A stretch of DNA of 64,000 nt, taken from the sequence record PZ445527.1. One strand, 5' to 3'. Positions 6,253 through 60,178 of this stretch are shown in pieces. This DNA comes from a phage. The notes beneath the pieces are model-generated. The model had not been told where the DNA came from. It worked only from the letters and a program-made list of their open reading frames with translations, and did no database searches. A program made the translations under genes and the position numbers. Each line of letters begins with the position of its first letter. The first letter of the stretch is position 1.

Positions 6253-8355
6253 TTACCTTATATGGATATACCCGTTTTGCAGGTCTATCTTCATTTTGTA
6301 GGATCCCTCTGGGTTAGAGGATAGTGCTGCTGCACGATCATATATAATATTTACACCAATTTGTGATAAGAAAGCATTGTTAGCAACAATTTTACTAGCA
6401 GTTACCGTGCCATTAACTATCATATCCCCGTGTAAAACCATTGCAGGACTAGCCCATGCCGAACCATTCCACTGCCTAGTAAACGCTGTTCCTGGTGCTC
6501 CACTTTTATACTCGGTTAATACATCATATTTAACAGGGCCAGTACCAAAGTTAGATGTAAAGAATGAATTAGCTTGTGAATCATTCCATGCTGTTAAATT
6601 AGCGATAGCAAGAGAATACATTCCTGGACCACGTTGTCCTGTATCTCCTGGCCTACCATCAGCACCAGGTTTACCATCAGCCCCCGGTCTACCATCAACA
6701 CCTTCTGTACCACTCCATTGAACTACGTCTGACCAGCTAGTTCCAGATACTAATTGATTAGTAACAGGATCTAAAGTACCTGTAGAACAGTAAATATTTT
6801 GAGTATTAGATGTTCTATTAGGTGGAGTTTTTGACCAACCTGAAGGTGGATATGCAGGGCTTGTAGGTTTAGCAGGTAGTGAGGTTCCTAGAGTATAGAT
6901 AAATACTGTTTGCTTACCTTGTATACCTGTTGCTATATCGATGTCACCGTTAGGTGTACCAATTACAACCCCACTAGAGATTCTTAATGTATCACCGTCG
7001 TAACGAATGTACTGGGTAGCATTGCCAATATCCAGTTTTGGTTTAGCAGTAGCATTATCCATACCCATCCAGATACCAGATCTTGTATCACCCCAAGTTT
7101 TGCCTTGAGTATAAATTGCTGGATTATCTTGACCAGTTAGATTGGTCATAACAAAATTCGCAGCATTTATAGTTTTAGTGATTACACTACCATCAACGTT
7201 AACTATCTTTTTAATAGGGTCAAAAGATATTGGTGCTTTTCCTTCTGCATCTAGAAGACCTATATTAATAGCACCAGTAGCAGCATCTATCAGGAAAGTT
7301 TGTTTCCAAGTAGAACCATCTTTGATCTTGCCCTTAATATATGCGTAGTTTACCTCAATACCGGTTTCGTTTACAAAACTGTTATCTAGTGGAGTATCTT
7401 CCTTTAGTATAAAAGTTTGTACAGCAGAGTCGGTAGTATCCTGCTTACTTGGTCCCCAGGCAATAGACGACACTTTAAATTTATGCTCTACTTTCCACGG
7501 GAATGATATAATTGTTGCTGATTGGGCAGCACCCACATTAATTTTTTGTGCTTTAGTCCATCCAGTTCTTGCAAACTCTGCTGAATCTATATAGGATAGA
7601 ACAAACTCACGAACATTAGCCCCTGCACCTCTATTCCAATCCCACTGAACACGCAAATCATAGCGTTCTTTACCATCTGCAATGCGCGCTGCTTTAAACT
7701 CAATATTAGTGGGTGCGGTAGGAGGAACAAAATTATAGTTAACTTCAAAGACAGTAGGATACTCATAGTATCCAGATGAATCAATAGTAACACCGTCTGG
7801 TAGGCTTATTTGACCAGAAATTCTTACTTTATAGAATCCGATTGGTACGCCACCAAACATAATAGTTGGCATCAGTGCACCAACGTAATATTTAACCCAC
7901 GGGTTATTGGCATTAGAATTATTCTTTAATTCTATAGTACAATAATCGGCCTCCCCTGTAGTATCTATATAAACTATGGGGGCCCCAACCCCAACATCTA
8001 CTGGTTCTGACTCGCATCGAGCACCTGTGATTCTAGGTGCTGATTTCATTTTAAAAGTTTGCTTATCAGATAGATTAATTCCTATCTGTGCATTAAGAAG
8101 TTCAGAGTCTATTATGGAATCATAAAATGCACCCTGAACTTCATAAGTTGTTGTAGGTTTTAGATTATTAATAGTTACAGAGAAAGTATCAACACCCGTG
8201 AAGTCTCTACGAGTAATATTACTACCTTCTTTTAGCCAAAAAGATCTGCCTATAACGTCATAATCTGAGTAAATAGAATGCTGGATATACGCCAACGTAT
8301 ATCCAGTTAAGACGCTATTTAGAACCATTTTAGCTGGTGCATTATTTGAGATCAT
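6253..8355 (-). CDS. baseplate central fibre protein (pb4-like) with collagen-like repeat
   Basis: 700 aa; Gly-X-Y run [24 protein letters not shown]; synteny. Confidence 0.65.
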
Positions 8356-58100: not shown

Positions 58101-58177
58101 TGGGGTGGCTAGTGGAACTCGAATCCACATAGGCCTGATTCACAATCAGGATCATTAACCAATTATGATATAGCCAC
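58101..58177 (-). tRNA. tRNA-His(GUG)
   Basis: hand-folded cloverleaf: acceptor GTGGCTA/TAGCCAC, D-arm TCAT/ATGA, anticodon arm CCTGA-TTGTGAA-TCAGG, T-arm GTGGA-TTCGAGT-TCCAC, discriminator C, CCA encoded. Confidence 0.85.
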
Positions 58178-58406
58178 AATTGAAAACTCGCAGGGTTAGC
58201 GAAACCATCCTCAATTAGCATGTTCTAGAATACTAATCAAGTTATCTCCTATTGCACGCAGCTCAAGACGAGTACGAATTTTCAATTGTGGCGGCTCTCA
58301 GAAACTCTTCTATTCTAGCCTCAGAAGCTTACCCCCGAACGCATGTCGGGAAAGTCTTTCCAAGCGCATCAAATAGCACCGTTACACTTTGAGCCATTGA
58401 TGTATC

Positions 58407-58476
58407 AAGGAATAGAAGGACTTGAACCTTCATGAGTTAGACCATTTAACTCAACCGCTTTTTAGGGTATATTTCT
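58407..58476 (-). ncRNA. aberrant tRNA-like element
   Basis: canonical T-arm GAAGG-TTCAAGT-CCTTC and acceptor-like ends, but only one internal hairpin (TGAGTTA-AATGGTC-TAACTCA); no separate anticodon arm found. Confidence 0.3.
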
Positions 58477-58543
58477 AGGAGTGGATGTTCCTAGTAAACC
58501 TATTCGGCAGTCCCGTCTACCAATTCCGGCATATTCCAAGATT

Positions 58544-58638
58544 TGGAGGTAGGTAAGGGGATCGAACCATTACACCGTATCACTACGGTCAACCGATTTC
58601 AAGTCGGAGTCCATCGCCAGCCGTTGGATTGACCTACC
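58544..58638 (-). tRNA. tRNA-Ser(UGA)
   Basis: acceptor GGTAGGT/ACCTACC, anticodon loop CTTGAAA, long variable arm ACCGTA-gtga-TACGGT, T-loop TTCGATC, CCA encoded. Confidence 0.82.
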
Positions 58639-58650
58639 TTATAAATTGTT

Positions 58651-58735
58651 TGGTGGGTTAGGAGAGACTCGAACTCTCACGCACTTAAGCAAGGGCTTCT
58701 AAGACCCTCGTGGCTACCAATTACACCACTAACCC
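58651..58735 (-). tRNA. tRNA-Leu(UAG)
   Basis: acceptor GGGTTAG/CTAACCC, anticodon arm AGGGT-CTTAGAA-GCCCT, long variable arm, perfect T-arm GAGAG-TTCGAGT-CTCTC, CCA encoded. Confidence 0.8.
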
Positions 58736-58741
58736 CTAATT

Positions 58742-58816
58742 TGGTGGACAGTAGGAGAGTCGAACTCCTCACTCCTGAGTGCAAGTCAGGTATTTTCCCA
58801 GATAAACTAACCGCCC
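58742..58816 (-). tRNA. tRNA-Ala(UGC)
   Basis: acceptor GGGCGGT/ACTGTCC (two G-U pairs), anticodon arm CCTGA-CTTGCAC-TCAGG, T-arm AGGAG-TTCGACT-CTCCT, CCA encoded. Confidence 0.82.
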
Positions 58817-59185
58817 AAATTCTTTAATTTACTAAGGCTATTAGCTCGGCGTAACTACAGCACCTTCGCTTCAAGCGGAAGGAACCGCGTCATCTCGCAA
58901 ACCCAATACACTATTCAGTTGCCGCTGAATCTAGTGGACTAATCTAGAACTTCTCCCGAGTCGTAGGGATCGTGCTTTTTGGCAGCCAGTCCTAGGTCGA
59001 GCTAATACCTTAGTGAATTATGATGAGGATTTCTCCCATATCAATTTATATAAATATTATAACAAGAAATTAATCATCAAGCAATTGAGTTTTTCTTGAA
59101 ATTGGTAGCGGGTTCCAGTACTGCCCTGGACTTACTTAGCTTATGAGACTAAGAAGAACTCTATGCCTTCCACCCGCAATTGTTT

Positions 59186-59309
59186 GGTTATTCTAGACAG
59201 GATTCGAACCTGTTATCACTTGTGCGGACTTACGAGAACCATTCTTTCACTCGAATCGAACGAGCTTCTGCCCTAGCCAAGCTGGTTTCCCCATCAACCA
59301 CGCTAGAAT
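59186..59309 (-). ncRNA. about 121-nt tRNA-like element containing two T-arm-like hairpins
   Basis: perfect 7-bp acceptor-like pairing ATTCTAG/CTAGAAT enclosing D-arm-like TGGT-TGATGGGGAA-ACCA and T-arms GCTCG-TTCGATT-CGAGT and ACAGG-TTCGAAT-CCTGT. Confidence 0.3.
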
Positions 59310-59431
59310 GTTTGATTGTTTTCAGTGCAAGAGTCCGAGTCTTGGACACGACCGTTTCGCAAGTACATAGGCAGCTTATCATGAGTCAGCACTTCCGAAT
59401 TGCTAGCCCCGTGTTCTGCACTGAAATTTTA

Positions 59432-59802: not shown

Positions 59803-59879
59803 TTTGGCGCGACTGATGGGATTTGAACCCACATTCCCTCCCGTGATAGGGGAGTACCATTACCAAGCCAGCCACGGTC
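59803..59879 (-). tRNA. tRNA with atypical anticodon loop CTATCAC (anticodon uncertain)
   Basis: CCA encoded, T-arm GTGGG-TTCAAAT-CCCAT, acceptor 6 of 7 paired, perfect anticodon stem CTCCC/GGGAG. Confidence 0.45.
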
Positions 59880-59890
59880 GCATAATTTAT

Positions 59891-60076: not shown

Positions 60077-60178
60077 GCTTGTTTCCTCAGTTATTAATGA
60101 AAATGGTATCTGTGGCTGAATTAGATGTCAGCAATGATAGCTGGTTGGCTACCGGTTTACTTAACTCTACACAGAATT

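Follow-up and report, generated by a model that had tools for sequence, protein, structure and literature searches.

Homologues of the BF23 and DT57C stable RNAs in two ORF-free stretches of a T5-like phage tRNA cluster

The tRNA cluster of the phage in sequence record PZ445527.1 contains two stretches, at positions 58178-58406 and 58817-59185, that are rich in long hairpins and hold no plausible protein-coding gene, which raises the question of what they encode. An initial annotation, made from the letters alone, had proposed that they specify additional stable RNAs of the kind reported from T5-type tRNA regions. We followed up this proposal across the window (the whole 64,000-nt stretch of the record analysed here) and find it supported, the feature being already known from the annotation of phages BF23 and DT57C: it is very probable that both stretches encode small stable RNAs of the T5 family, derived from early tRNA-operon transcripts and with tRNA mimicry as their likeliest role. 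In line with the initial finding of no plausible ORF, none of the ORFs in the two stretches exceeds 46 aa; the small ORFs present (28-46 aa) begin with TTG or GTG, and those lying wholly inside either stretch run on the plus strand, whereas the tRNAs are on the minus strand.

The phage is T5-like (Tequintavirus), and region 57400-60000 matches 474 phage records, nearly all of them from T5-like Salmonella and Escherichia phages, with 80-99% identity at the best places. All 12 tRNA genes that ARAGORN finds in the window lie on the minus strand, so that co-transcribed elements are read from high to low coordinates, and an Rfam search of the whole window at gathering thresholds returns tRNAs only. 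As the reference for feature mapping we used the BF23 tRNA-region record AJ604530, with DT57C (KM979354) as a second annotated record. AJ604530 lists RNAIII, RNAI and RNA 2H as misc_RNA features ("stable RNA with unknown functions") and RNA1, RNA2 and RNA3 as "tRNA-like RNA with unknown functions", and also annotates early promoters; KM979354 annotates rnaIII, rnaI, rna2H, rna3 and rnaX. The features of the window, from mapping, folding and tRNA prediction, are as follows.

58179-58284, minus strand: RNAIII, 106 nt, 100% identical to BF23 over its full length
58289-58395, minus strand: RNAI, 107 nt, 97.2% identical to BF23 over its full length
58396-58540, minus strand: RNA1, 145 nt (144 nt in the BF23 annotation), 94.5% identical to BF23
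58836-59007, minus strand: RNA 2H, 172 nt, 95.3% identical to BF23 over its full length
58825-59020, minus strand: precursor stem of RNA 2H, from inverted repeats and the minimum free energy fold
59029-59103, minus strand: promoter P13b, 87% identical to the BF23 "promoter P13b"
59103-59178, minus strand: X, a non-canonical tRNA(CAU), 76 nt, from relaxed ARAGORN (-ps80)
59187-59310, minus strand: RNA2, 124 nt (125 nt annotated in BF23), 97.6% identical to BF23
59311-59431, minus strand: Y, an unannotated element, 121 nt, from fold and conservation
60104-60176, minus strand: RNA3, 97% identical to BF23

RNAIII, RNAI, RNA1, RNA 2H, P13b and RNA2 have the same order and strand in BF23 and in the window. 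Read along the transcribed strand, both give RNA1, RNAI, RNAIII, tRNA-His, and P13b, RNA 2H, tRNA-Ala; DT57C keeps this order of RNAs but lacks RNA1. The BF23 segment comprising tRNA-Val, tRNA-Lys, tRNA-fMet, tRNA-Pro, RNAIV and tRNA-Gly2 is missing from the window, where X directly follows RNA2 instead, and feature mapping finds no counterpart of BF23 RNAIV within the window. The additional stable RNAs initially proposed can thus be named, in that RNAIII, RNAI and RNA 2H map to BF23 misc_RNA features at 100, 97 and 95% identity, and the earlier reading can be refined by placing these predicted RNAs on the minus strand.

By its match to BF23, the first stretch (58178-58406) consists of the homologues of RNAIII and RNAI, lying between tRNA-His and RNA1. 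The 13-bp inverted repeat first noticed here is real and in fact longer, with arms of 18 nt (58173-58190 and 58275-58292) that are 94% complementary. It is the closing stem of RNAIII, whose fold comprises a 12-bp closing stem and three hairpins around a cloverleaf-like four-way junction; the repeat is extended beyond RNAIII by pairing of the RNAI CCA and adjoining spacer with the first bases of tRNA-His. The folding energy of 58178-58287 on the minus strand is low relative to shuffled sequences (z = -3.1, with 1 of 200 shuffles as good), and at its 3' end RNAIII directly adjoins tRNA-His, whose 5' end is at 58177. RNAI, which starts where RNA1 ends, closes with a 5-bp terminal helix (GGCUC/GAGCC) and then G/A-CCA; the NCCA of this tRNA-like 3' end is kept in 21 of 21 distinct variants, and the RNA carries a D-arm-like motif, AGUGUAACGGU. 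Taken alone (58288-58398), RNAI does not fold significantly better than shuffled sequences (z = -1.3).

The second stretch (58817-59185) comprises the homologues of RNA 2H and of the early promoter P13b, together with X, so the stable-RNA reading of this stretch stands for RNA 2H, while the remainder is better described as a putative sigma-70 early promoter and a degenerate tRNA(CAU). RNA 2H is multi-branched, and the hairpin CCTTCGC-ttcaa-GCGGAAGG that had drawn attention to the stretch is indeed present, at 58863-58882, where it tips the 3' arm of the RNA. The fold of the surrounding region (58817-59030, minus strand) has z = -4.1, with none of 200 shuffles as good. Across 28 distinct sequences, 99.9% of the cells at the 48 predicted pairs are paired, compared with 34-42% in slid controls; nine pairs are compensatory, seven of them in the arm with the CCTTCGC/GCGGAAGG hairpin. 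Epseptimaviruses carry an extra hairpin of 23-24 nt in one RNA 2H arm.

RNA 2H is enclosed by long inverted repeats (58839-58853 with 58993-59007, and 58825-58837 with 59008-59020) that form a precursor stem of about 21 bp (58825-58845 with 58998-59020), interrupted by one bulge and one mismatch. In the BF23 annotation, the mature ends of RNA 2H are placed within this stem, with a 3' overhang of 2 nt. The flanks of the stem are invariant across genera, and the window has a G:C to A:U double change that preserves the pair. The geometry of the stem and this compensatory change in its extension support its role as a processing stem, and from the RNase III-like geometry at the RNA 2H ends we infer that RNase III may be the enzyme concerned.

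Upstream of RNA 2H, the promoter elements of P13b can be read directly on the minus strand: a -35 hexamer TTGCTT (59084-59079), a 17-nt spacer and a -10 hexamer TATAAT (59061-59056), with an A-rich element upstream of the hexamers and transcription expected to start near 59049. These hexamers lie inside the stretch homologous to BF23 P13b. A consensus promoter scan missed them, because TTGCTT scores only 3 of 6 against TTGACA, and listed a different, weaker site at 59044-59017. The position of P13b makes RNA 2H the first gene of an early operon, which would run through RNA 2H, tRNA-Ala, tRNA-Leu, tRNA-Ser, RNA1, RNAI, RNAIII and tRNA-His.

RNA1 and RNA2, the neighbours of the two stretches, are tRNA bodies with altered anticodon arms. 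In RNA1 the body is that of a class-II tRNA: besides an acceptor stem there are a tRNA-Leu-like D arm (presumably differing little from that of tRNA-Leu itself), a long variable arm and, at 58415-58431, a canonical T arm (GAAGG-UUCAAGU-CCUUC). Its anticodon loop is replaced by a structured insert of about 48 nt (58459-58506) that continues the anticodon stem and ends in an 8-nt apical loop, ACAUCCAC (58481-58488); three genera share this loop without any change, while the stem below it covaries. RNA1 has 11 compensatory pairs and 99.1% of cells paired (slid controls, 40-47%). Homologues occur in Epseptimavirus and Sugarlandvirus; a motif scan of IMG/VR gave 27 loci, nearly all in phage genomes of about 104-121 kb and several of them T5-like contigs already collected, and a wider distribution of RNA1 is not evident among these 27. 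RNA2 follows the same plan: acceptor stem, D-like arm and canonical T arm are all present, and the anticodon arm is longer by about 48 nt. It has 15 compensatory pairs, and a homologue is present in the fetched Sugarland locus.

For comparative analysis, loci were collected through relatives of a neighbouring 115-aa ORF, of which 23 T5-like loci were used and 57 unrelated phages left out; an exact 29-mer from tRNA-His gave 0 matches in IMG/VR. Phage records with a match number 500 for the RNAIII-RNAI-RNA1 block and 428 for RNA 2H. Both are spread over Tequintavirus and Epseptimavirus, down to about 73-80% identity in the latter, and RNA1 is also found in Klebsiella Sugarlandvirus. Over about 22 Tequintavirus loci, mean pairwise identity is 99.3% for RNAIII (22 copies), 94.0% for RNAI, 90.1% for RNA1, 97.3% for RNA 2H, 97.8% for RNA2 and 97.9% for Y. 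By comparison, tRNA-His and tRNA-Asp score 98-99.8%, and third codon positions in adjacent ORFs 78-87%. Identity near that of true tRNAs and above that of third codon positions indicates purifying selection along the whole length of the RNAs.

Structure is conserved as well as sequence: 98-99.9% of cells are paired across the tested RNAs, as against 30-55% in slid controls. The helices of RNA 2H, RNA1 and RNA2 are kept through compensatory changes, which come mostly from a few deep splits (Tequintavirus versus Epseptimavirus or Sugarland) and so represent few independent events. The comparative covariation analysis suggested at the outset gave an uneven picture, with clear compensation in RNA 2H, a weak signal in RNAI (97.9% paired, with 3 compensatory pairs, mostly G-U transitions) and too little variation in RNAIII for covariation to be assessed.

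The likeliest of the alternatives takes the stretches to be decayed tRNA genes or spacers with no function of their own, whose hairpins either guide the processing of neighbouring tRNAs or are tolerated leftovers. Several of the RNAs do look like tRNA halves with a disrupted anticodon arm, many Epseptimavirus genomes lack RNAIII and RNAI (matches there begin no earlier than query position 105 or 199), BF23 RNAIV is absent from the window, and viability in laboratory hosts survives deletion of the entire tRNA-rich region (PMC11555353). Nevertheless, we regard decay as unlikely, since the RNAs are conserved like working tRNAs, far above neighbouring synonymous sites, and compensatory changes occur inside the inserts too, as in the covarying stem beneath the invariant apical loop of RNA1. 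Such conservation together with covariation of the inserts is a pattern not expected of neutral remnants.

A second alternative is that the elements are cis-acting regulators of the tRNA operons (terminators, attenuators or transcript stabilisers) and not free RNAs, as might be suspected from the position of RNA 2H directly after a promoter, from the location of Y immediately after the stop codon of an ORF, and from two terminator-like sites that a simple scan places inside RNAIII and RNA1. Those two sites, however, turn out to be a T-arm-like hairpin and the T arm of RNA1, with the T-rich strand of a closing stem coming next in each case, and the scan as a whole yielded 4 sites against 2.4 expected by chance. 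The authors of the BF23 and DT57C records describe discrete stable RNA species, and at 106-172 nt, with multi-branch folds, the RNAs are larger than a terminator has to be, leaving a purely cis-acting role very improbable.

Y itself, which lies between the stop codon of ORF trn2.10 and RNA2, folds into an 11-bp closing stem with an internal multi-branch, a four-way junction (z = -3.0). Its 97.9% mean pairwise identity compares with 85% for third codon positions in the adjacent ORF, and it is too invariant for a covariation test. Although 220 records contain it at 90% identity or more, it is annotated as an RNA in none of them; this conserved element is new as far as the examined annotation goes.

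The stretches might also be ordinary tRNA genes that software had missed, and here the individual elements differ. Default ARAGORN makes no call in either stretch. Its intron option (-i) reports RNA1 as a tRNA carrying an "intron" of 41 nt, and RNA2 as well when the threshold is relaxed, but once the covarying helices are respected neither RNA retains a 7-nt anticodon loop, and BF23 annotates full-length species of 144 and 125 nt; we therefore rejected the intron reading. The group I introns described from bacterial tRNA genes are, moreover, far longer than the 41-48-nt inserts of RNA1 and RNA2. Matches of RNA1 and RNA2 to the tRNA model RF00005 are confined to their 3' halves and stay below the gathering score of 29 (22.2 and 20.6 bits). 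RNAIII, RNAI and RNA 2H have no tRNA match in a search of the tRNA region with Rfam 15 even at E values up to 10, and the other Rfam 15 families (6S, tmRNA, Y-RNA-like, sRNAs, riboswitches) give only chance-level snoRNA matches (E 5-9). At gathering thresholds no Rfam 15 model matches RNAIII, RNAI, RNA 2H, RNA1, RNA2 or X. The Rfam check proposed with the initial annotation assigns the two stretches to no family. In favour of conventional tRNAs are the intron-option call of RNA1 and X, which folds into a cloverleaf with a CAU anticodon and an encoded CCA and is found by relaxed ARAGORN; as an account of both stretches, we give missed tRNA genes very little probability.

X thus appears to be a real, if non-canonical, tRNA-like gene and the sole part of the two stretches that tRNA software explains; the prospect that such genes would account for the regions holds for 59103-59178 and nowhere else. 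ARAGORN calls it tRNA-Met(CAT) only with -ps80, and the X region has no match in BF23. X shares with the BF23 gene annotated as tRNA-fMet an acceptor stem with a U1-U72 mismatch and the anticodon loop CUCAUAA. It differs from that gene in its D arm, which has G8G9 and a loop CAUAGAGU without GG, and in its T loop, GGCAGUA instead of UUCGAUU. X keeps a cloverleaf with a 7-nt anticodon loop and covarying stems, its D and T loops are non-canonical, and U8, the D-loop GG and U55 are missing. An alternative central helix proposed by RNAalifold, pairing the D region with the anticodon loop, was set aside, as it involves largely conserved columns without compensatory change whereas the cloverleaf stems covary. 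In other T5-like phages X comes after tRNA-Pro, where BF23 has tRNA-fMet, and a deletion in the window has brought it to lie directly after RNA2.

X is present in 58 T5-like records and annotated as a gene in none of the 58. An unrelated Klebsiella myophage and three other viral contigs likewise have homologues of X in their tRNA clusters. In these homologues the D region and the T-loop pattern KGCRRUA are conserved, and compensatory substitutions alter the acceptor, anticodon and T stems. The occurrence of the family in unrelated phage tRNA clusters is, as far as the examined annotation goes, new. Considered separately, X would represent a phage-borne class of non-canonical tRNA(CAU), marked by G8G9, a D loop CAnAGAGU and a T loop KGCRRUA, and usually overlooked by standard annotation pipelines.

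Hidden small protein-coding genes are the least probable explanation, to the point of being negligible: "hypothetical protein" is annotated over homologous DNA in phages such as Sepoy, phiLLS and GEC_vB_N5, and ORFs of 28-46 aa do exist, but these are short, use TTG or GTG starts and, where they lie wholly inside the stretches, oppose the operon strand, while homologues carry 1-nt indels and the 23-24-nt insertion, which would break any frame, and substitutions are paired and compensatory rather than codon-like.

Returning to small stable RNAs as the preferred reading, we infer the following route for their production. Host sigma-70 RNA polymerase would transcribe the minus strand into polycistronic early tRNA-operon transcripts, from which host processing enzymes (RNase P and RNase III) would cut the RNAs. 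Cleavage by RNase P at tRNA-His would generate the 3' end of RNAIII, and the ends of RNAI, RNA1, RNA2 and X, being tRNA-like, would be treated as those of tRNAs are; RNA 2H, on the other hand, would be excised from its stem of about 21 bp with an RNase III-type 2-nt stagger. The abutment of RNAIII and tRNA-His and the junction between RNAI and RNA1 mean that the enzymes acting on the flanking tRNAs could also generate the mature ends. The RNAs would then owe metabolic stability to their compact, mostly cloverleaf-like folds; stability and mature ends alike are presumed here to be as annotated in BF23 and DT57C.

Most of these RNAs may be tRNA derivatives that have retained the acceptor and T-arm half and lost a normal anticodon loop. 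Their most likely function, which we put forward tentatively, would be tRNA mimicry, that is, engaging host or phage tRNA-binding proteins without decoding; candidate partners include processing or modification enzymes and tRNA-targeting defence nucleases. The T5 tRNA-rich region, deletable in laboratory hosts, is now known as a counter-defence locus that carries counter-defence tRNAs (PMC11555353, PMC12483538). A more specific proposal is that RNAI, RNA1 and RNA2 (perhaps also RNAIII, RNA 2H and X) are anti-defence tRNA mimics, acting as decoys or inhibitors of tRNA-targeting immune nucleases or sensors, or hijacking host tRNA-processing or modification enzymes. We hold this to be a speculative and unlikely extension; if true, the counter-defence role shown for genuine T5 tRNAs would gain a non-decoding arm. 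In phage SP15, when nine cloned fragments of the tRNA-rich region were compared, rescue from retrons Eco7 and Eco2 came only from those with tRNA-Tyr and ORF75, tRNA-Tyr acting against Eco7 and ORF75 against both Eco2 and Eco7 (PMC11555353). As the stable RNAs are not mapped onto these fragments, the result is at most weak evidence against a role for them against Eco7 or Eco2.

The practical value of these assignments lies in better annotation, as most of the approximately 430-500 matching T5-like records leave the loci blank or fill them with a spurious "hypothetical protein"; the X family and Y are small additions that standard pipelines have missed. The precise structures, the invariant loops (e.g. 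ACAUCCAC in RNA1) and the putative processing stem also offer concrete experimental targets.

Among known systems, the stable RNAs of BF23 and DT57C are the closest, with identities of 94.5-100% to the window and the same strand, lengths and order relative to tRNA-His, to tRNA-Ser, tRNA-Leu and tRNA-Ala, and to P13b; the only difference between BF23 and the window is the missing segment from tRNA-Val to tRNA-Gly2, with X after RNA2. T5 itself contains homologous stable-RNA sequences that are unannotated. Phage T4 offers a parallel in rnaC (species 1, 139 nt) and rnaD (species 2, 119 nt), which, like the T5-family RNAs, are small stable RNAs encoded in a tRNA cluster on the tRNA strand with no assigned function. 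T4 rnaC combines a canonical T arm and a long extra arm with a long stem in place of the D and anticodon arms, a plan like that of RNA1 and RNA2, and rnaC and rnaD are likewise absent from Rfam 15. However, blastn-short comparison of rnaC and rnaD with the T5-family RNAs gives only matches of 10-11 nt, one of which is the T loop, and the T4 RNAs are classed as late whereas those of the T5 family lie in early operons; the likeness is best treated as an analogy, homology not being demonstrated. Compared with the canonical tRNA (RF00005), anticodon loops are missing or replaced in the stable RNAs, none of whose RF00005 matches reaches 29 bits, while acceptor and T arms are kept in RNA1, RNA2 and X, and an NCCA end is kept in RNAI. 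RNAI, RNA1, RNA2 and X presumably share the processing of the tRNA operons in which they lie.

X, a non-canonical tRNA(CAU) of 76 nt in the tRNA region, is a member of a gene family whose copies, listed below, also lie among the clustered tRNA genes of unrelated phages.

Window, 59103-59178, minus strand: X family copy
L094, 704-780, minus strand: X family copy
L127, about 6880-6960: X family copy
L128, 688-764: X family copy
L129, about 40-125: X family copy

The family is marked by G8G9, a D loop reading CAnAGAGU, a T loop reading KGCRRUA and a frequent 1-72 mismatch, and covariation is seen in its stems. Among the copies examined, default ARAGORN detects only that of L128. In Pseudoalteromonas phage J2-1 (L095), the 5' half of an X family gene adjoins an endonuclease gene.

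Besides X, we consider four further features of the window, one of which, the 121-nt element that we call Y, fills the gap from the ORF trn2.10 stop codon to RNA2 (a tRNA-like RNA annotated in phage BF23).

59311-59431, minus strand: element Y, 121 nt
59805-59881, minus strand: tRNA-Asp, anticodon ATC (A34)
60104-60176, minus strand: homologue of BF23 RNA3, 97% identity
63841-63976, minus strand, running towards the window end: match to part of DT57C RNAX, 99% identity

Y folds into an 11-bp closing stem with internal branches (z = -3.0). It is shared, with an identity of at least 90%, by 220 phage records, and none of them, the BF23 record included, carries an RNA annotation over it. Its conservation, 97.9%, matches that of RNA2 and compares with 85% at codon position 3 of the neighbouring ORF; Y may be a further stable RNA or a processing element. 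BF23 RNA3 is a 74-nt "tRNA-like RNA" adjoining tRNA-Asn; its homologue here, 99% conserved across Tequintavirus loci, is missed by both default ARAGORN and Rfam. In DT57C, RNAX is a misc_RNA of 636 nt, labelled a stable RNA and placed immediately upstream of tRNA-Arg(TCT); the 99% identity refers to the first 136 nt available.

The ATC anticodon of tRNA-Asp, as against GTC in all 45 homologous copies from the fetched T5-like loci, is a sequencing error or else a variant of the anticodon loop. In some GenBank records, "hypothetical protein" CDSs overlie the loci of RNAIII, RNAI and RNA1, stable RNAs of BF23 (for example L085 4534-4695, Sepoy_076; several further records likewise), and are probably spurious gene calls.

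T5-like phages differ mosaically in the content of their tRNA regions. Homing endonuclease genes are present in this region in some of them. Comparing window 58541-58660 and 59104-59186 with L001 2642-3141 and 3585-4961, we find that the window, relative to BF23, lacks ORF trn2.14 and tRNA-Ser2, as well as a block comprising tRNA-Val, tRNA-Lys, two ORFs, tRNA-fMet, tRNA-Pro, the early promoter P13a, RNAIV and tRNA-Gly2.
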